Positions 2,956 through 25,206 of a DNA stretch of 46,324 nucleotides are shown one piece after another. The notes beneath the pieces are model-generated. The model was not told where the DNA came from. It worked only from the letters and a program-made list of their open reading frames with translations, and did not search any database. Position 1 is the first letter of the stretch. Each line of letters starts with the position of its first letter. The position numbers and the translations under genes were made by a program. This DNA comes from an uncultured Candidatus Saccharibacteria bacterium. GTDB lineage: Bacteria; Patescibacteriota; Minisyncoccia; Phycocordibacterales; PALSA-1337. The stretch is taken from the NCBI GenBank assembly GCA_964484315.1, contig CAZAEF010000001.1, positions 1 through 46,324 on the forward strand. The letters are read 5' to 3'.

Positions 2956-3836
2956 ATTCTCTCTAGTTTTTTTGATAAGTCTTTCCTCAAAAAGATATAG
3001 CTGGCGCCCGTGATCTTATTCCTGTCTTTTATTTTCTCAAGAGAAGCGGTATCGGTTATTTCGTATCCATCATAGCCATATTTGTCCATGAGTGCAAAAG
3101 TTTCCAGGAACCGTGGATTTTCCCCACCGCTCCAATATTTAATTATCTCTATGATAAAGCCGATTGGGCGGACCCGTTTTATAAATTGGTCAGCACCTTC
3201 CAGTGCAAAATACTCATTTCCTTCCACGTCGATTTTTATAAAGACAGATGCATTGGTCGGAATCTCATTCGTATAATTATCCAATCTGTCAATATTCACA
3301 GTTATTTTTTCTATGGGAATTTCGTTGTAAGTCCCTCTAACTATTGATCCGCCAGCGTCATTTCCATAGAGGGTCAATGTTTCCTTCTTTATTCCCAAGC
3401 CGACAGGATGGATGACGGTTTTTTTTGCATCGTTTATTCTTAGATTTTTTTCCAGGGATCTTACATTATCTCGTGAAGGTTCAAAGGCGATAATGTTCAT
3501 GTCAGGACGCATCTTGTTCATGAGGCATGAATAATATCCTATATGGGCACCTATATCTATAAAGCAGTCGAAATATGGCATGAGTTTTTTTACGATTGCC
3601 ACCTCGTCAGATTCAAAAGGGCTTTCTACGAACTTTTTCCACGTCCTATGCTTGCGGTATTCATAGCATCCGAGGAGATAGCCCCCGTCCATTTTGACCG
3701 CCATGAACTTATCTGTCTTGAGTTCATCTTTCCTGATCTCATATATCCAATAGAACAATCTGCTGAATGTAGGCTTGGTGTCCAGATAACGTAATAGAGA
3801 TATGAGTCTTTTTTTATTGTAAGAAATAATTCCCAT
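2952..3836 (-). CDS. FkbM family methyltransferase
   Basis: FIDIGAHIGYYS (SAM motif I) and IIAFEPSRDNVRSLEKNL are typical of FkbM-type methyltransferases. Confidence 0.7.
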   Translation of the reverse strand: MGIISYNKKRLISLLRYLDTKPTFSRLFYWIYEIRKDELKTDKFMAVKMDGGYLLGCYEYRKHRTWKKFVESPFESDEVAIVKKLMPYFDCFIDIGAHIGYYSCLMNKMRPDMNIIAFEPSRDNVRSLEKNLRINDAKKTVIHPVGLGIKKETLTLYGNDAGGSIVRGTYNEIPIEKITVNIDRLDNYTNEIPTNASVFIKIDVEGNEYFALEGADQFIKRVRPIGFIIEIIKYWSGGENPRFLETFALMDKYGYDGYEITDTASLEKIKDRNKITGASYIFLRKDLSKKLERI

Positions 3837-3937
3837 ACGTCAGGATGTTATGTGTGAAATCTAGCATATTATATCATTCCTCACAATCAAGTTTTTTCCT
3901 AGACTTCCATAATTTTATGATATAGACTGTATTGGCA

Positions 3938-4756
3938 ATGAAGATAAGACTTCCAAAGATTATAAAGACGCCCACGATTTTTCTTCTCGAGAAGATGGGC
4001 TTCAAGGAGGTCTCCACTGAGGGCATAATTACGACGCTTCAGAATGCCATCTTTACAAAGGTCGGCAGAGAAAATGGACCATCAAGAGAGCTTTGGATCG
4101 AAGAGACCCTTAAAAAGATACCCGCAGGGAAGAGCATATTGGACGCTGGAGCAGGGGAGTTGAAGTATAAAGTATTTTGCAGTCACTTGGATTATACGAG
4201 TCAAGATTTCGGCAAGTATGATGGACATGGCACAGGGGAGGGTATACAAGTCGGAGCCTGGGATAATTCAAAGCTGGATATCGTGTCCGACATCATTAGC
4301 ATTCCGGTTCCGAATAAATCCTTCGATGCAATTCTCTGCATCGAAGTCTTCGAACATATCCCGGAACCCGCTCTCGCCGTAAAGGAGTTCTCGAGAATAG
4401 TCCGTCCAGGAGGAAAGGTTATCATCACGTCGCCATTCTGCTCATTGACCCATTTCGCACCGTTTTATTTTGCAAACGGCTACAGCAAATATTGGTATGA
4501 AAAAGTCCTGACAGAACACGGATTTGAGATCGAAGAAATATTTTTTAACGGAAATTTCTTTAAATATCTCGGTCAGGAGATAAGAAATATCAGAGCAATG
4601 GCGTCGCGCTATTCAGGAACAAATACTAAATGGTGGATCTGTTTCAGGGTAGCCGAGATTGTCATGTTGCAGGCATTATCACGCCTTTCAAAAAAGGACA
4701 AAAGGTCGCAGGAATTATTATGTTTCGGCCTTCATGTCGTCGCGAGAAAAAAATAA
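3938..4756 (+). CDS. Class I SAM-dependent methyltransferase (tandem copy 1)
   Basis: ORF 3932..4756 (TTG 3932, ATG 3938). ILDAGAGELKY (motif I), ILCIEVFEHIPEP and IVRPGGKVIIT. Confidence 0.7.
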   Translation: MKIRLPKIIKTPTIFLLEKMGFKEVSTEGIITTLQNAIFTKVGRENGPSRELWIEETLKKIPAGKSILDAGAGELKYKVFCSHLDYTSQDFGKYDGHGTGEGIQVGAWDNSKLDIVSDIISIPVPNKSFDAILCIEVFEHIPEPALAVKEFSRIVRPGGKVIITSPFCSLTHFAPFYFANGYSKYWYEKVLTEHGFEIEEIFFNGNFFKYLGQEIRNIRAMASRYSGTNTKWWICFRVAEIVMLQALSRLSKKDKRSQELLCFGLHVVARKK

Positions 4757-14417: not shown

Positions 14418-16640
14418 ATGATCACCAAAACCCTGCGCAACATCAGCCTGGCCCTTATTTTCATTATTCCTTTTATTCCTCTCTATGTTTCGAATGATCT
14501 ATTCTTCCTATTCATCACGGGCAAAGGTTTTGTCTTCAGGATTGTAGTCGAGCTCATATTTGCTCTATGGCTCGTCCTCATTCTCCATGACAAGAAATAC
14601 GCTCCACGCTTTTCTTGGTTATCTTTCACCATCACAGCATTCACTATAGCTGTTCTTGTAGCCGATCTTCTCGGTATGAATCCTCTCCGTAGCCTCTGGT
14701 CAAATTTTGAGCGTATGGAGGGGTGGGTGACTATAGTCCATCTCTGGGCATACTTCCTCGCGGTGACTAGCATATTCGGCGTCGGTGAAAGTTGGAATGG
14801 AGATGGAAAACGCATGTGGCATACTTATTTCAAGATCTCTCTTCTCGCCGCTTTTTTTGTTGGCATATATGGTCTATGGCAAGTCTTCGGTTGGGCAGCG
14901 ATTCATCAAGGATCATCTCGTATCGATGCCTCACTAGGTAACTCTATATACATGGCCGTCTATATGCTCGTACATTTTTTCATTGCTCTCTATCTGAGCG
15001 CAGTCGAGTATAGGAAAAATAATAGTCATACATCATGGATATATATCGTCCTCGCTCTTCTATTCTCATATCTTCTCTTTGAAACTGCCACTCGAGGTAC
15101 TATCCTCGCTCTCATCGGTGGTGGAATGCTCTCCTTAGGAATATACGCAGTATATGGCAGAGAACAGTCAATGAAATCCCGCTCGATCTCTATCGGGGTT
15201 ATTGGTGGAATCATTCTCTTGGGTGTTCTATTTTATTTCAATAGGGATGCAGGATTTATTCAGAAAAATGAAACTCTACGCCGTCTAGCATCTATATCTA
15301 TCAGTGATACGAAGACTCAGGCTCGAGGATTCATCTGGCCTATGGCTGTGAAAGGTGTTTTCGAAACTCCAAAAACGACACTTATCGGTATAGGACAAGA
15401 GAACTTCAATTATATTTTCAATGCTAATTACAATCCACAAATGTGGAAGCATGAGCAGTGGTTCGATCGTGTCCACAATGTCTATCTTGACTGGTTGGTC
15501 GCTGGAGGTGTTATATCTCTCGCTCTCTATCTCGCTCTCTATGTTTTCTCTCTTGCATTCGTATGGAAGAGCACTCTAAGTTTTATCGAAAAGTCTATAT
15601 TGACAGGACTCATAGTCGGCTACGCCATACACAATATATTCGTATTCGACAACCTCATCAGCTATATATTATTCTTTACGATCCTCGGCTTTGTACACGC
15701 GGAGAATGGTGGTCGCGCTATAGCGCTTCTTGAAAGATCAGATGATCAAAGTGAGGACAGTATTGTTATGCGTGACTATGTATTTGCACCAGTCATCATC
15801 ATTGCAATATTCGTTGTTATCTATATGGTCAATGTCCGTGTCATCCAAGTCAACAAACTTCTCATTGCAGGGATGGTGTCGTGTAATAGTAATACTCCAA
15901 CGACTAAGTCATTTGTGGATGCATTGAATCTAGATCAGCGTGTTGCCAATCAGGAAATAAGAGAACAGCTAGTCGTATGTGCTAGCAATATTGTCCGTGG
16001 TCAGGCTCGCTCTGATTCCAAGAATGAATTTTTCGGAGTTACTGTGAAGGAGATACAAGCACAAATAAAAGAGACACCGCTCGATGCCAGAGCATATGTA
16101 TTCGCTGGCAATTTCTATAATTCCGTAGGGGATTGGAAGGGAGGACAACCTATTCTCGAAAAGGCACTCGAACTTTCTCCTCGCAAGCAGTCAATCGTCT
16201 TCGAACTTGCTGTGAACTATATGAATTCTGGAAAAACAAAAGAAGCGCTTGCCCTGATAGAGCAAGCATACAATGATGCACCTGATAACGATACATCAAG
16301 AGTAGGTTATGCTTCTATACTTATCCTCAACGGCCAAGAGCCGAAGGCTCGCGAGATATTCGGCAATGACGATACGATCTTCACGGATCAACGCATCATC
16401 AATGTATATATGAAGCTCAAGCAGTATTCTAAGATCATCGATATTTACAAGAAACTCATTGCCAAGGATCCAGAGAATATTCAGAACTATGGTTCTCTCG
16501 CGGCTACATATTTGCAGAATAATGATAAATATAATGCTATATCGATCTTAAAGACACTCGGTGCGAAATTTCCAGCGACGAAGGCTCAATCAGATGAGTT
16601 GATCAAACAAATAGAAGCTGGTAAAAATGTACTGCAATAA
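14418..16640 (+). CDS. O-antigen ligase/polymerase-like (Wzy_C) polytopic membrane protein with C-terminal TPR domain
   Basis: About 12 hydrophobic segments. ETATRGTILALIGG and RVHNVYLDWLVAGG resemble Wzy_C/WaaL/PglL signatures. The C-terminal ~250 aa has TPR-like repeats (LELSPRKQSIVFELAVNYMNSGKTKEAL..). Confidence 0.7.
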   Translation: MITKTLRNISLALIFIIPFIPLYVSNDLFFLFITGKGFVFRIVVELIFALWLVLILHDKKYAPRFSWLSFTITAFTIAVLVADLLGMNPLRSLWSNFERMEGWVTIVHLWAYFLAVTSIFGVGESWNGDGKRMWHTYFKISLLAAFFVGIYGLWQVFGWAAIHQGSSRIDASLGNSIYMAVYMLVHFFIALYLSAVEYRKNNSHTSWIYIVLALLFSYLLFETATRGTILALIGGGMLSLGIYAVYGREQSMKSRSISIGVIGGIILLGVLFYFNRDAGFIQKNETLRRLASISISDTKTQARGFIWPMAVKGVFETPKTTLIGIGQENFNYIFNANYNPQMWKHEQWFDRVHNVYLDWLVAGGVISLALYLALYVFSLAFVWKSTLSFIEKSILTGLIVGYAIHNIFVFDNLISYILFFTILGFVHAENGGRAIALLERSDDQSEDSIVMRDYVFAPVIIIAIFVVIYMVNVRVIQVNKLLIAGMVSCNSNTPTTKSFVDALNLDQRVANQEIREQLVVCASNIVRGQARSDSKNEFFGVTVKEIQAQIKETPLDARAYVFAGNFYNSVGDWKGGQPILEKALELSPRKQSIVFELAVNYMNSGKTKEALALIEQAYNDAPDNDTSRVGYASILILNGQEPKAREIFGNDDTIFTDQRIINVYMKLKQYSKIIDIYKKLIAKDPENIQNYGSLAATYLQNNDKYNAISILKTLGAKFPATKAQSDELIKQIEAGKNVLQ

Positions 16641-16658
16641 CTGAATATTTTGTTAAAC

Positions 16659-16760
16659 AATAATTAAGTGTCATCTAAAGCTCTTGTTAGATAATAATTA
16701 AATGTTACTGAAAGCTCTTGTTAGATAATAATTAAGTGTTACCAAAAGATCTCGGTAGTA
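16659..16760. repeat. Three tandem 34-bp direct repeats
   Basis: Units are 16659-92, 16693-726 and 16727-60, consensus AATAATTAARTGTYAYYDAAAGCTCTTGTTAGAT. Unit 1 and unit 2 differ at 5 of 34 positions; unit 3 is more diverged. Confidence 0.85.
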
Positions 16761-16770
16761 ATAATAAGCT

Positions 16771-16799
16771 TTGCAGTATACAAGGTGTAGGTGTATAAT
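16771..16799 (+). promoter_or_regulatory. Sigma70-type promoter TTGCAG-17-TATAAT
   Basis: -35 at 16771-76, 17-nt spacer, perfect -10 at 16794-99. Confidence 0.55.
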
Positions 16800-16805
16800 G
16801 TGGTG

Positions 16806-16890
16806 GTGAGTACGACGGCCCAGCCGGCTGTTAGTGCCAAATTCCAAATAAAATGTTTACGTAAGGTCCTGTCTCGGCAGGATTTTGCGT
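16806..16890 (+). ncRNA. Short GC-rich terminated transcript (sRNA, or attenuated leader of murB)
   Basis: Starts just downstream of the 16771-99 promoter. Contains the palindrome CAGCCGGCTG (16821-30). Ends in hairpin 16865-71/16878-84 (5 Watson-Crick plus 2 G-U pairs) whose 3' arm runs into the T-tract TTTTGCGTTT (16883-92). Confidence 0.3.
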
Positions 16891-16896
16891 TTATGC

Positions 16897-16952
16897 TTCA
16901 CTGTTCATACTCCGTTGTTTATACTTCGCTGTTTATATTTCGCATGATATAA
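16897..16952 (+). repeat. Three full and one degenerate tandem 14-bp direct repeats overlapping a promoter
   Basis: TTCACTGTTCATAC (16897-910), TCCGTTGTTTATAC (16911-24), TTCGCTGTTTATAT (16925-38), then TTCGCATGATATAA (16939-52). The core TGTTYATAYT recurs at exactly 14-bp spacing. Confidence 0.8.
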
Positions 16953-16953
16953 T
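16945..16953 (+). promoter_or_regulatory. Extended -10 promoter TGaTATAAT
   Basis: TG at 16945-46 and TATAAT at 16948-53. Weak -35 (TTCGCT 16925-30). About 140 nt upstream of the murB ATG. Confidence 0.5.
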
Positions 16954-16995
16954 TGTTACAGGGTTGATAGCGAAGTTAGAATATATTTGAAATAG

Positions 16996-17082
16996 ATGAA
17001 AAGATTGTTTCAAGTATTGGCGGTGGCTGTACTCACATTTAAATTAAACATTATATTTGGAGCTAACACCCATCGCCAATAG
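16996..17082 (+). CDS. Possible 28-aa hydrophobic upstream ORF (MKRLFQVLAVAVLTFKLNIIFGANTHRQ)
   Basis: ATG 16996 to TAG 17080-82, read by hand. Signal-peptide-like N-terminus. Ends 11 nt before the murB ATG. No homology evidence. Confidence 0.25.
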   Translation: MKRLFQVLAVAVLTFKLNIIFGANTHRQ

Positions 17083-17093
17083 TTGGCGCAATC

Positions 17094-18113
17094 ATGACAA
17101 TAGAAGAGAATAAAAGCATGAAAGAATATACGACATTTAGAATCGGAGGACCTGCCCGATTTTTTTGTACTGTACGCCACGAAGATGAGTTTATGCAAGC
17201 GCTAGAATACGCGCTAGAAAAAGGCGTCCCAATTTTCATTCTCGGAGGAGGATCAAACATTCTAGTTTCAGACACAGGTTTTGCAGGACTTGTCATAAAG
17301 ATGGAAATAAAAGGAATTCGATTCACTGACGATACGCATGGCAACGCGCGCGTGACCGCACATGCTGGAGATGATTGGGATCATCTTGTAGATGAGACTG
17401 TCAGAAGCGGACTCTATGGTCTGGAAAACCTCTCACTCATTCCAGGGTCTGTCGGCGCCGCGCCAGTACAGAATATTGGAGCGTATGGTAGTGAGGTGAA
17501 GGATACTATCGATCATGTCCGGGTCTATGATAGAGAAAAGAAAGAATTTATCACAATCCTCAACTATGATTGTCATTTTGGATATAGGACAAGCGCATTC
17601 AAGGATAATCCATATCGCTATATTATTATTTCCGTTACATTTATTTTGAAAAAATTAGGAAAAGTGAATATAGAATATAGAGATCTCAGAGAGTATTTTG
17701 TAAAGATAGGACAATTGCAACCGACCATTGCCGAAGTTCGCAAGGCGGTGATCAGCATACGCACAGCCAAACTTCCAGATATTGCAAAGATAGGTACAGC
17801 AGGATCATTTTTCAAGAATCCCGTCATTTCCCATTCGCAAGCTCATGAGCTCAAAGTGAAATACACAGATATACCTCTCTATCCAATCAATGAAGAGTAT
17901 GTAAAAGTTTCTCTAGCCTGGATAATAGACAAAGTCTGTGGATATAGGGGGGTGACGCGAGGTGAAGTGGGAACATACAGGAACCAAGCGCTTGTTATTG
18001 TAAATAACGGAAATGCCACTGCGCGTGAAGTGATCGCTTTCGCAGAAGAATTAAAAAATAGTATAAAAGAAAAAACAAATATCGTCGCGGAGTTTGAAGT
18101 GCAGATAATTTAG
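17094..18113 (+). CDS. murB: UDP-N-acetylenolpyruvoylglucosamine reductase
   Basis: FAD-binding TFRIGGPARFF, GGGSNIL and C-terminal AGSFFKNP motifs. Confidence 0.9.
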   Translation: MTIEENKSMKEYTTFRIGGPARFFCTVRHEDEFMQALEYALEKGVPIFILGGGSNILVSDTGFAGLVIKMEIKGIRFTDDTHGNARVTAHAGDDWDHLVDETVRSGLYGLENLSLIPGSVGAAPVQNIGAYGSEVKDTIDHVRVYDREKKEFITILNYDCHFGYRTSAFKDNPYRYIIISVTFILKKLGKVNIEYRDLREYFVKIGQLQPTIAEVRKAVISIRTAKLPDIAKIGTAGSFFKNPVISHSQAHELKVKYTDIPLYPINEEYVKVSLAWIIDKVCGYRGVTRGEVGTYRNQALVIVNNGNATAREVIAFAEELKNSIKEKTNIVAEFEVQII

Positions 18114-22363: not shown

Positions 22364-23086
22364 ATGTATAAGTTTTTCATACTAGTATTTTTTCTAGCAG
22401 GATCTGGATTGACTGCATATGCCCAGTCTACTCCTATTCTGAATGCTGGTCTTGTATCAGATATATGGTATTCATCTTCTTCTGTTACAGAGGGAGATAT
22501 AATAAAGATATATAGCGGGGTCTACAATAGTTCACAGAGTAAGGTCACTGGTATGGTTACGTACTTTGTTGATGCCATAGAAGTTGGCAAAACGACATTT
22601 TCTTCTGAGCCTAAGAGTCTCATACAGATAGAGACTGGATGGACTGCCACTGCTGGCGATCATAAGGTCAAGGTGAAGATCAGCACTTCTACAGCTAACC
22701 TTGCTCAAATAGAGAGCAATGAAGAATGGTTATCTGTCCAAAAGAAGATTACAAAAGAGAGTGTGCAGAAAGATGTACAATCTGTGGTGAAGAAGGCTGT
22801 GGCTACGATTGATCCCATAGCAGAAAAGATTGCAGATAATATAGATGGTCTGAAGGATAAGCTCGGCGTGGATACTGTAGTGGGGAATTCGACAAGCACC
22901 GATAGAGATAAGAGAAAAATAACAGATTCAGATTTATCAAAAGTAAACAAAATAAAGAATAAAGTTCTGGGAGGACTCATCGATGGGTCTAGCTATATTG
23001 TCAGACATTGGATATGGAGTATTCCTGTGATTATCCTTCTCTACTTTATTATTAGGAGAAGGAGAGAAAAGAAAAGTTGGTGGTAG
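22364..23086 (+). CDS. Hypothetical secreted / C-terminally anchored protein
   Basis: Signal-like MYKFFILVFFLAGSGLTAYA. C-terminal hydrophobic WIWSIPVIILLYFII followed by RRRREKKSWW. No family recognised. Confidence 0.6.
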   Translation: MYKFFILVFFLAGSGLTAYAQSTPILNAGLVSDIWYSSSSVTEGDIIKIYSGVYNSSQSKVTGMVTYFVDAIEVGKTTFSSEPKSLIQIETGWTATAGDHKVKVKISTSTANLAQIESNEEWLSVQKKITKESVQKDVQSVVKKAVATIDPIAEKIADNIDGLKDKLGVDTVVGNSTSTDRDKRKITDSDLSKVNKIKNKVLGGLIDGSSYIVRHWIWSIPVIILLYFIIRRRREKKSWW

Positions 23087-23135
23087 GGAATAAGCGGGAG
23101 GTTTTATAAATTATATACATAAGGTCAGATACATA

Positions 23136-23164
23136 TTGCATTATTTACTTCATCATGATAATCT
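23136..23164 (+). promoter_or_regulatory. Promoter TTGCAT-17-TAATCT with TG extension
   Basis: -35 at 23136-41, TG at 23156-57, -10 at 23159-64. Confidence 0.5.
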
Positions 23165-23170
23165 ATTGCA

Positions 23171-23455
23171 CAGACCATGAAAAATATGGATCCTCTGCAA
23201 CGCTTCAAAGCGTGTTGGTATGTAGAAGTCACATTCCTTGGCGCCACAGTGTCCTATGAATTCATCAAGGAAGTAGCGGAGGTTCTCAGCTTTGCAGTAC
23301 ATCAGGTGGTGTCTCGGTGCAATCGAAAGTTTGATACCGCCCCCTGCAACAGGACGTACACAGGCCTTAAGGACCTGTGAGAACCTTGTTTCCCCGATTA
23401 ACTAAACTCAAAAGTGAAGACCGTCGCGTGTACGCGTGGCGGTCTTTCTATTTTA
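23171..23455 (+). ncRNA. Candidate structured RNA, unit A (family not recognised; overlaps a 67-aa ORF 23177..23380)
   Basis: Bounded by a promoter and a terminator. Nested helices 23281-88/23378-85, 23292-97/23344-49, 23305-13/23333-41 and 23361-66/23371-77, plus two 5' hairpins. Confidence 0.45.
23418..23454 (+). terminator. Intrinsic terminator of unit A
   Basis: AGACCG/CGGTCT outer stem and CGCG-TGTA-CGCG inner stem (23418-45), then TTTCTATTTT. Confidence 0.65.
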
Positions 23456-23483
23456 GGTATTTTATAAGGGGATACGAGTGGTA

Positions 23484-23544
23484 TTGACAGACTTATACGA
23501 GTGTGCTAGCTTGTTTGACAGATAGCAATCTGTATTGTTATTTA
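23484..23544 (+). promoter_or_regulatory. Two tandem TTGACA promoters
   Basis: TTGACA 23484-89 -17- TAGCTT 23507-12. TTGACA 23515-20 -18- TATTTA 23539-44 with TG at 23536-37. ATACGAGTG (23472-80, 23495-503) and TTGACAGA (23484-91, 23515-22) are each duplicated. Confidence 0.45.
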
Positions 23545-23550
23545 GCCATA

Positions 23551-24085
23551 ACATAAATAAAATGGCTCTTTGTAATAAATAAACCAAACAGGTATAAACG
23601 CCTTGGGGAAACCCTAAAGACGAAGGATACGTACAATGAAACTGTTACGATTCACCCTGGTCGCGCTTTCGCCTGGCCTTCTCTTGAACCCTGCGACTCC
23701 GGAACTCCTGGATACGTTGCGGACCAAGAAGCCGGTGCAAAAACGTACCGATTGGACCGTTGAAGCCGAAGCTGGCACGAGGCTCTACCGTTCGGAAGAA
23801 GGCAAAATGGGCCTCCTGGCAAGTCCCGTCCGCTACCGTCGGGTAGAGTCTGGAGCAACAAGAATTTTTCTTGTCGCTATACTATCAGGCCCAGTGTTGT
23901 CCCGCAGTCTAGCGTCCGTCAGTGTAAACTAATGCCAAGTCTTGTCCGTCACACCGTTCCAATGAGCGTGAGGTATTTATCTTTCGCTTTCTCAATTGCC
24001 GTGCCGCAGCGTGCCGTTCAGTGCTCTGTAGTAAAGCGTGGTTCGGAGCGGTTGATCGTAATAGATCAACCGCTTCTTCTTTTTA
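23551..24085 (+). ncRNA. Candidate large structured RNA, unit B (family not recognised; overlaps a 98-aa ORF 23636..23932). The 5' end is approximate
   Basis: GC-rich core of 55-60% G+C by hand count in 23641-23820, against 25% just upstream. Multiple nested helices. Strong terminator at the 3' end. Confidence 0.45.
24047..24085 (+). terminator. Intrinsic terminator of unit B
   Basis: An 11-bp stem AGCGGTTGATC / GATCAACCGCT (24047-57 / 24064-74), loop GTAATA, then TCTTCTTTTTATTT. Confidence 0.8.
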
Positions 24086-24093
24086 TTTCCACA

Positions 24094-24102
24094 TGATAGA
24101 CT
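24094..24102 (+). promoter_or_regulatory. Extended -10 TGaTAGACT
   Basis: TG at 24094-95, TAGACT at 24097-102, and 6 nt to the ychF ATG at 24109. Confidence 0.4.
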
Positions 24103-24108
24103 CATTCC

Positions 24109-25206
24109 ATGTCCCTATCCATCGGCATCGTCGGTCTCCCAAACGTCGGTAAATCGACACTTTTCAACGCTCTTACGAAAAAGAGTGTGCTAGCCGCCAA
24201 CTATCCTTTTGCAACTATTGATCCATCTGTAGGAGTCGTTGCTGTTCCGGATGATCGTCTATACAAGCTTGCAGATTTTTCTAAGACACAGAAGATTGTT
24301 CCTGCAGTTGTGGAATTTGTCGATATTGCCGGTCTTGTAAAAGGCGCTTCAGAAGGTGAAGGACTCGGCAATCAATTCCTCACCAATATCCGCGAGACAG
24401 ATGCTATCGCTGAAGTTGTACGTATTTTCGACGATGAAAATATTATTCATGTTGATGGCAAAATAAATCCTATCAGTGATATCGAAGTTATTAATCTCGA
24501 ACTCATTCTTGCAGACATGCAGACGGTTTCGAAGCGACTCAAGAACCTTATTCCAAATGTAAAGAAGGGAGACAAGATTGCAATCATAGAGAATGAGGCG
24601 CTTGCGCGTCTTGATAAAGCATTTCAAGAAGGACGAATGGCACGCACAGTCGTGCTGAATGAGTTCGAGGCACCACTTGTGAAGCAACTCAATCTACTCA
24701 CAATGAAACCTATACTCTATGTTCTCAATAAGAAAGCAGGTGGACGCAATCTCGATGAGATGAAAGATGAGAGATTCACGGCACTTATAGAATTTATGAA
24801 AAAGACGAATTCGAATTATGTCATTGTCGATGCAAAAATAGAGGAAGATCTAAAGGATATGGTCGGAGAAGAAAAAGACATGTTTCGAACAGAGCTCGGA
24901 GGTAAGGACGATGGTATCAATGATTTAATTAAAGAAGGTTACAAGATGTTGAACCTCATCACTTATTTTACAACTGGAGAAAAAGAGACACGGGCATGGA
25001 CAATTATAAATGGTTGGACAGCGCCACTTGCAGGAACGGCTATACATACAGATTTCAAGGATAAATTTATTCGTGCAGAAGTCATAGAATGGGACAAACT
25101 TATCGAGGCAGGGTCATTCGGTGTGGCTCGTGAGAAAGGATTGCTACGCACAGAAGGGAAGGAATATGTGGTGAAGGATGGGGATGTGATGGAGTTTAGG
25201 ATTTAG
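24109..25206 (+). CDS. ychF: Ribosome-binding ATPase YchF
   Basis: [19 protein letters not shown]-loop and C-terminal TGS-like [17 protein letters not shown]. Confidence 0.9.

Follow-up and report, generated by a model that had tools for sequence, protein, structure and literature searches.

A putative small orphan gene cassette beside a decayed VIPR locus in the intergenic region upstream of ychF of a Candidatus Saccharibacteria bacterium

We analyzed a stretch of 46,324 nucleotides (referred to as the window) from an uncultured Candidatus Saccharibacteria bacterium (contig CAZAEF010000001.1 of assembly GCA_964484315.1) and focused on a short intergenic element at 23136-23457, here called unit A. 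For this element, an initial annotation had proposed a transcript of about 285 nt that runs from a promoter to a terminator, folds into a nested three-way junction and represents either an orphan RNA or the message for a micro-protein of 67 amino acids (aa). Unit A is located in the left part of the largest gap between open reading frames (ORFs) of the 46-kb window (23087-24108; 1,022 bp), which is bordered on the left by a gene for a membrane protein of 240 aa (22364-23086) and on the right by ychF (24109-25206). The GC content of this gap amounts to 0.46, compared to 0.41 for the window and to 0.30-0.41 for the other long gaps. The right part of the gap (unit B, 23484-24088) contains the remains of a locus for the Viral Interference Programmable Repeat (VIPR) system.

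Direct reading of the plus strand revealed that the initial annotation had placed the promoter-like site of unit A (23136-23164) correctly. It consists of the hexamer TTGCAT (23136-41), a spacer of 17 nt and an extended -10 element TGATAATCT (23156-64), in which the hexamer TAATCT (23159-64) is preceded by a TG (23156-57), and transcription is predicted to start near 23171. Each of the two hexamers agrees with the sigma-70 consensus in three of its six positions, and the site is absent from the list obtained with a sigma-70 consensus scan. In seven other genes of the window, an extended -10 element of the form TGnTAnnnT starts 15-25 nt before the ATG, and in unit A the corresponding distance is 21 nt; many genes, such as those starting at 14418, 18426, 24109, 33194, 35002, and 36149, have the element beginning 15-18 nt before the ATG. 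Also, there are almost no Shine-Dalgarno sites in front of the genes of the window. Because TGnTAnnnT is situated so close to the start codons, its position implies that leaderless or short-leader mRNAs are probably widespread in this host genome, and we take the site in unit A as a putative promoter. The extended -10 element of ychF, TGATAGACT (24094-24102, plus strand), lies 6 nt before the ATG in a leaderless layout and resembles the -10 element of unit A; at the equivalent place, TGCTAAACT or TGTTAAACT is found in the related loci L089 and L088, respectively.

The ORF list of the window contains a 67-codon ORF at 23177-23380 (plus strand), and the protein alternative had rightly been kept open in the initial annotation. 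This ORF begins with an ATG, is not preceded by a Shine-Dalgarno sequence and would be translated from an mRNA with a leader of about 6 nt, whereas its TGA stop codon is located inside the closing helix of the predicted fold described below. Its first base is nucleotide 7 of the predicted transcript, and 35 nt separate its end from the terminator. When the unit was shuffled with its dinucleotide composition preserved, ORFs of at least 67 codons were encountered in 2.0% of the cases, in 0.7% if an ATG start was required, and in 0.2% if this ATG had to fall within the first 12 nt. The GC contents at codon positions 1, 2, and 3 of the ORF are 0.51, 0.37, and 0.56, respectively. The first two values are host-like, and the value for the third position (GC3) is above the range of 0.31-0.43 determined for host genes and close to the 0.61 obtained for the vipr remnant in unit B, which points to a foreign composition of the block. 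A frame-specific codon score (log-likelihood ratio) of 10.2 nats was calculated for the ORF and one of 11.7 nats for the vipr remnant, when 18.5 ± 7.0 nats were obtained for windows of true host genes and -1.1 ± 10.4 nats for spurious ORFs. The shifted frames of the ORF each scored highest with their own shifted model. The antisense frame in register with the ORF is also open, as is typical for the shadow of a coding frame. An open frame of 86 codons on the minus strand was dismissed as a gene as it showed no coding score (-4.1 to +2.0 nats).

At its right end, unit A is closed by an intrinsic terminator that was found in a terminator scan (23416-23457, plus strand) and consists of a GC-rich stem of 14 bp (23416-47) followed by CTATTTTAGG. 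The stem contains seven G-C pairs, has a loop of 4 nt and is followed by CTATTTT, in agreement with the definition of an intrinsic terminator. The GC-rich hairpin that the initial annotation had recognized at this place is indeed exceptional, as hairpins of at least 13 pairs with a T tract occur three times in 46 kb, the terminator of unit A being one of them, and windows that include it rank second among 9,242 for GC-adjusted folding stability. The terminator is the sole statistically striking part of unit A. No terminator of its own was found for the 240-aa gene (22364-23086), and the hairpin at 23416-47 is the first one downstream of it. To describe unit A as a discrete unit from promoter to terminator is a fair reading of its sequence.

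For the 240-aa membrane protein, two relatives are known, which are encoded in L089 and L088, and the gene order G6PD gene, membrane-protein gene, ychF is common to both of these loci and the window. The distance from the stop codon of the membrane-protein gene to the start codon of ychF is 40 bp in L089, where YchF displays 72% identity to YchF of the window, and 54 bp in L088, versus 1,022 bp in the window. Because L089 and L088 have just 40-54 bp at this place, the whole gap, comprising units A and B, is a lineage-specific insertion in a variable spot. Other relatives have different small genes there, which makes this position a hot spot of variable small inserts. In three loci (L012, ~3140-3365; L013, ~3263-3490; L014, ~3719-3945), a conserved ORF (MFQNFL[LV]K...; about 75 aa) is located between the G6PD gene and ychF, and a GC-rich ORF of 103 aa is found on the minus strand in the same spot of L013 (3578-3889). 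The region studied here is present in five independent contigs (ENA, Logan, NCBI), all of which are 100% identical to the window. The block is flanked by CATGATAATCT (23154-23164) and CATGATAGACT (24092-24102), the local similarity of which is weak (p about 0.016); these flanks could be a target-site duplication or merely reflect the usual -10 motif of ychF in this clade, represented by TGCTAAACT in L089 and TGTTAAACT in L088.

The neighbor of unit A within the gap derives from a recently described system. VIPR combines a RAMP protein, Vipr, with vrRNAs, which are guide RNAs of about 100 nt on which Vipr polymerises and which guide it to DNA; each consists of 9-16 tandem pentamers with a conserved GGY or related motif (YNNGG, NNNGG, YNNNG, or NNNNG) and, at its 3' side, a conserved structured tail that the vrRNAs of one locus have in common (bioRxiv 10.64898/2026.04.26.720920, 10.64898/2026.04.26.720927). 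The vrRNA genes are found in long intergenic regions on either side of vipr, and one small accessory gene, vap, is usual in VIPR loci (bioRxiv 10.64898/2026.04.26.720920, 10.64898/2026.04.26.720927). Vipr is characterized by a thumb and a glycine-rich loop, whereas Vap proteins recur beside vipr within a clade and have a predicted DNA-binding (WH/HTH), nuclease or helicase fold (bioRxiv 10.64898/2026.04.26.720920). Phage SUSP1 has one of its vrRNAs on the 5' side of the genes, and in some VIPR arrays hammerhead ribozymes are interspersed (bioRxiv 10.64898/2026.04.26.720920).

In unit B, direct reading of the plus strand indicated a vipr promoter (23484-23512) with TTGACA (23484-89) and the extended -10 element TGCTAGCTT (23504-12), which resembles the promoter of the intact vipr of L090. 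Further downstream and preceded by a Shine-Dalgarno sequence (AAGGA, 23623-27), a truncated vipr (23636-23815, plus strand) comprises codons 1-60 of about 226, and the ORF of 98 aa that had been called at 23636-23932 runs on from this vipr remnant into the vrRNA array. When compared to protein P0005, the 98-aa ORF shows 91% identity over the first 53-57 residues and then diverges. Similarly, the vipr remnant displays 87% amino acid identity over residues 1-60 to P0008, a full-length protein of 226 aa that belongs to the P0005 cluster, and the DNA of the P0008 contigs is 86% identical to the window from the 5' untranslated region (UTR; 23558) to 23816, with no identity beyond. Another vipr relative, of 227 aa, is encoded on L090. 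The full-length vipr relatives match phrog_4652 (E = 1.5e-16) and, in the region of a glycine-rich loop, the PDB entry 36pp_D 'SUSP1 Vipr protein' (E = 1e-5 to 3e-5), and more distant relatives occur in Felixounavirus phages. In P0008, SUSP1 Vipr aligns to the G-loop region GLCDWRP..GRFGRF; this region is deleted from the window, where the locus is a remnant and not intact.

Pentamer register and fold define three vrRNAs on the plus strand downstream of the vipr remnant. The partial vrRNA-1' (23819-23878) consists of seven pentamers (23819-53) and the hairpin tail AGCAACAAGAATTTTTCTTGTCGCT (23854-78), and vrRNA-2 (23885-23988) of 16 pentamers (23885-23964), ten of which fit YNNNG, and a hairpin tail (23965-88). 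In vrRNA-3 (23997-24088), which was delimited by its fold and the terminator scan, ten pentamers (23997-24046; nine of them fitting YNNNG) are followed by a hairpin tail (24047-74) and a T tract, and this tail also serves as terminator in front of ychF. The tails of all three vrRNAs have an AGC...GCT frame, as in L091. As a test for vrRNAs, stretches of nine consecutive pentamers were scored by the number of pentamers that fit YNNNG. In the 46-kb window, at least seven of nine were reached only at 23997-24046, just before the hairpin 24047-74, and the positive controls, 23819-24046 of the window and L091, gave counts of 6-9 out of nine. Unit B is therefore a decayed VIPR locus, in which a vipr promoter with its 5' UTR and 60 codons of vipr are followed by a deletion and by three vrRNAs, and this locus is presumably dead. 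The VIPR remnant with its YNNNG guides is a new, degenerate example of an already described system.

A more complete array was observed in the related metagenomic contig L091 (750-2027; ENA ERZ27309396 k141_45772) and also in L092, where at least 13 vrRNAs are located within 1.3 kb at the 3' side of an intact vipr of 226 aa. The tracts of L091 fit YNNNG in 6-9 of nine pentamers and each of them is followed by a hairpin. Their tails alternate between two types, an AT-rich GGAGCA...TGCTA hairpin and a GC-rich one whose loop is similar to TTAATTCAT. This vrRNA region of L091 folds with z = -5.5 and has no match in Rfam. On the JGI 3300071358 contig that encodes P0005 (8,918 bp), a second truncated vipr (82 aa; 599-847) is overlapped by a gene for 178 aa on the minus strand, and a ResIII/Helicase_C_2 helicase is encoded about 2 kb away from it. 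Decay of vipr seems to be recurrent in the clade of P0005.

Unit A forms the left and the decayed VIPR locus the right part of a foreign phage-type block of ~0.93-1.0 kb, which this Patescibacteria lineage acquired between ychF and the membrane-protein gene. For unit A itself, a small stand-alone orphan gene cassette is the most likely reading, with chances that are about even. In such a scenario, the extended -10 promoter TGATAATCT would give rise to a transcript from near 23171 and the first AUG, which a leader of only about 6 nt precedes in a layout known from leaderless genes of the host, would lead to translation of the 67-codon ORF. The strong intrinsic terminator 35 nt past the stop codon would end the transcript and would also block read-through from the 240-aa gene and insulate the vipr promoter, and the helices in unit A would represent ordinary mRNA folding. 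We favor the small orphan gene because, in a genome of leaderless genes, only 6 nt separate its ATG from the predicted transcription start and because the ORF fills the unit, as is observed in 0.2-2% of shuffles. We infer transcription and translation of unit A as well as any role that the 67-aa product might have. The evidence for the ORF is at least equal to that for a structured RNA.

Several results weigh against a functional gene. The codon score of 10.2 nats is ambiguous, since 11% of spurious ORFs attain it and 14% of the windows of true genes remain below it; period-3 power is not significant (p = 0.33; 16th percentile of tiles). The predicted leader of 5-6 nt means that the unit is not strictly leaderless. 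For the 67-aa product, a weak single-sequence AlphaFold model with a predicted local distance difference test (pLDDT) value of 60.8 displays a single helix at residues 27-51. No match to Pfam, PHROG, PADLOC, or NCBIfam was obtained, and no DNA-binding or nuclease domain was detected in domain searches or in this model (pLDDT 60.8). In a word-indexed search of 5.8e9 clustered proteins, the product matched itself only, and a phmmer search of 1.84e9 representatives returned itself and two spurious proteins, P0006 and P0007. These two were rejected as homologs, as they consist of near-identical tandem units of ~50-70 aa, that is, of translated satellite-like DNA, whose repetition inflates E-values. 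Comparison of the ORF with phages and plasmids by tblastn led to chance-level matches at most. No homologs turned up in which purifying selection might be seen, and the five carrier contigs are 100% identical. In addition, the gap of 575 bp located 5' of vipr in the intact L090 locus contains no comparable ORF, and with the adjacent vipr broken, the cassette of unit A may be dead too.

This last point leads to an alternative that we consider possible, albeit unlikely, namely that unit A is a non-functional relic of a decaying mobile block, in which the hairpin merely serves as terminator or 3' UTR end for the 240-aa gene, and neither the ORF nor the helices would be functional. The interruption of vipr after codon 60 indicates that the block is decaying, and conservation was found nowhere. 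Also, relatives differ in what they carry between the G6PD gene and ychF, the first terminator available to the 240-aa gene is the one at 23416, and all statistics on coding and folding are marginal. However, an uninterrupted ORF that starts with an ATG and fills the unit is rare by chance (0.2-2%), no damage is seen in the promoter-like site, the ORF or the terminator, and the complete identity of the five independent contigs shows no ongoing decay.

The reading preferred in the initial annotation, in which a structured small RNA of ~285 nt is made independently and acts as RNA, with a multi-branch junction in its 3' domain, has to be judged improbable, as the fold is unremarkable when the terminator is omitted. 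Whole unit A folds with -87.7 kcal/mol (z = -2.21), but for its body without the terminator (23171-23410) a z of -0.72 was obtained and 47 of 200 shuffles folded equally well, so that the body is no more stable than shuffled sequence. Individual helices could nevertheless be located where they had been noted, at 23234-40/23266-72 (7 bp), 23281-88/23378-85 (8 bp), 23292-97/23344-49 (6 bp), and 23305-13/23333-41 (9 bp including two G-U), and the same is true for the hairpin 23361-66/23371-77, which includes one bulge. Minimum free energy (MFE) and centroid folds predict a multi-branch junction domain at 23278-23387 (plus strand), which is composed of a closing helix (23278-88/23378-87), the helix 23305-13/23333-41 and the hairpin 23361-77. 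Thus, of the nested three-way junction that had been proposed, the closing helix, the 9-bp helix and the hairpin are kept in the MFE fold, but the 6-bp helix is swapped for other pairs.

The notion that structure is much denser here than in coding DNA applies weakly to the junction domain (23275-23392; 118 nt), for which z = -2.35 was determined, with 2 of 200 shuffles folding as well and a position at the 2nd percentile of 118-nt windows, for boundaries picked post hoc to fit. It does not apply to the body as a whole, the 5' half of which is ordinary (16th-53rd percentile among all 118-nt windows), including the 5' 100 nt, and about 2% of all windows, mostly coding ones, fold as well as the junction domain. 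Other features in agreement with a structured RNA are that folding is somewhat better for the plus than for the minus strand, that the GC content is raised within an AT-rich genome (95th percentile of windows for the body), that a strong terminator follows right behind a short unit, and that non-coding RNA genes typically flank VIPR loci. The unit is, however, filled by an ORF.

Comparison with known RNAs did not favor the structured RNA either. A search of the whole window with Rfam 15, which covers RNase P, tmRNA, SRP, 6S, ribozymes and riboswitches among others, yielded nothing at the gathering threshold and ARAGORN detected no tRNA or tmRNA, which bears out the remark in the initial annotation that no known RNA family could be matched. 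At E ≤ 10, a search of 22900-24300 gave ctRNA_pGA1 as the sole match within the unit (18.5 bits versus a cut-off of 45), and as this match lies on the terminator hairpin, the remainder has no Rfam match even at that level. Unit A therefore belongs to no known RNA family. A hammerhead ribozyme can be dismissed, since the core CUGANGA...GAAA does not occur in the right order on either strand, CUGAUG is present in the minus strand only and in the wrong context, and no Rfam hammerhead was found at E ≤ 10.

A covariance model built from the single sequence of the junction domain recovered only itself in 597 kb of related loci, and when units A and B were compared by blastn and nhmmer to 80 ychF loci of related Patescibacteria, no relative was obtained. 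Therefore, the comparison of covariation with synonymous substitutions that had been suggested in the initial annotation found no homologs to act on, and not one compensatory change is demonstrable. With blastn, a phage collection gave nothing and a plasmid collection one chance match of 37 nt to a Bacillus plasmid. Searches of IMG/VR with the 67-aa ORF, with Vipr proteins and their alignments, with the back-translated GRFGRFVIEKVE motif, with the conserved vipr 5' UTR and with a 22-mer of unit A were all empty. Because unit A has no homologs and its five contigs are identical and show no variation, the RNA and protein readings cannot be separated by comparison.

It is very unlikely that unit A is a component of VIPR, be it an atypical or eroded upstream vrRNA or a small accessory protein similar to Vap. 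In its favor, unit A is positioned directly 5' of vipr and on the same strand, as would fit a vrRNA; SUSP1 does have an upstream vrRNA, VIPR loci usually contain one small accessory gene, and the base composition of unit A is near that of the vipr remnant. However, the length of 285 nt differs from the ~100 nt of a vrRNA, and the best window of nine pentamers fits YNNNG in four cases on the plus strand and in five on the minus strand and YNNGG in one, which is background, whereas the true vrRNAs of the window and of L091 reach 6-9 of nine. No period-5 signal was detected in G or Y of unit A, and the hairpin GAAGACCG...CGGTCTTT at its tail does not show the AGC...GCT frame. The version of this explanation that invokes a canonical vrRNA is largely refuted. 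On the minus strand, three short YNNNG runs (4, 3, and 3 pentamers) were noted at 23207-23304, inside unit A, when about 0.26 would be expected; they are mutually out of phase, lack a tail hairpin, and may be due to chance or be the last trace of an eroded vrRNA.

A Vap is very unlikely, too: unit A adjoins vipr but has its own promoter and terminator, and there is no counterpart in L090 and no homolog. With Pfam, PADLOC, and NCBIfam and in the weak AlphaFold model, no DNA-binding or nuclease domain came to light. Local alignment of unit A with the upstream gap of 575 bp in the intact L090 locus resulted in a similarity at the level of shuffled sequence, and the contigs of the closest relatives, L091 and L092, end 68-93 bp upstream of vipr. 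Because the upstream gap of L090 contains neither similar DNA nor a similar ORF, the product of unit A is not a conserved partner of Vipr. That unit A would instead be an undescribed, non-repeat part of VIPR modules of the Patescibacteria type, an upstream micro-protein or structured RNA that regulates or counteracts the system, seems highly improbable as well; if true, its orphan status would reflect thin sampling of a clade with three or four known relatives.

A second long gap of the window (16641-17093; 453 bp; GC 0.35) contains a promoter-like sequence TTTGCA-18-TATAAT (16770-99) and a hairpin of 14 bp (16859-90) and has no match in Rfam. The segment 16981-17118 (plus strand), just 5' of the gene at 17094, is among the most stable folds in the window.

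Taken alone, unit A would be an object of an ordinary kind, a small orphan cassette on mobile DNA, and not a new structured RNA. The presence of a decayed VIPR locus with YNNNG guides on a Patescibacteria chromosome shows that VIPR modules enter ultra-small bacteria and erode there, and the pentamer test separates true vrRNAs from intergenic units that look alike. Compared to described VIPR systems, unit B (23484-24088) has the same elements, a vipr homolog with its own promoter and, downstream of it, guide RNAs of ~100 nt with tandem YNNNG pentamers and a hairpin tail, all in a small mobile block of the phage type. It differs in that its vipr is truncated after codon 60, and unit A differs in that it does not correspond to a vrRNA in repeats, tail or length and has no counterpart at the intact L090 locus. 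With hammerhead ribozymes, unit A shares the topology of a three-way junction beside a VIPR locus, but it lacks the core. Like terminator-ended small RNAs of bacteria, it is a short intergenic unit that extends from a promoter-like site to a strong terminator and contains some internal helices; in contrast to them, it shows no excess stability outside the terminator and no conservation, covariation or family match, and it is filled by an ORF. The small orphan genes of phages and mobile elements resemble unit A in having a promoter, an almost immediate ATG, a short ORF, a close terminator, a foreign composition and no relatives, whereas unit A deviates from them by a leader of 5-6 nt instead of 0, by its weak periodicity and by a translation that is putative.

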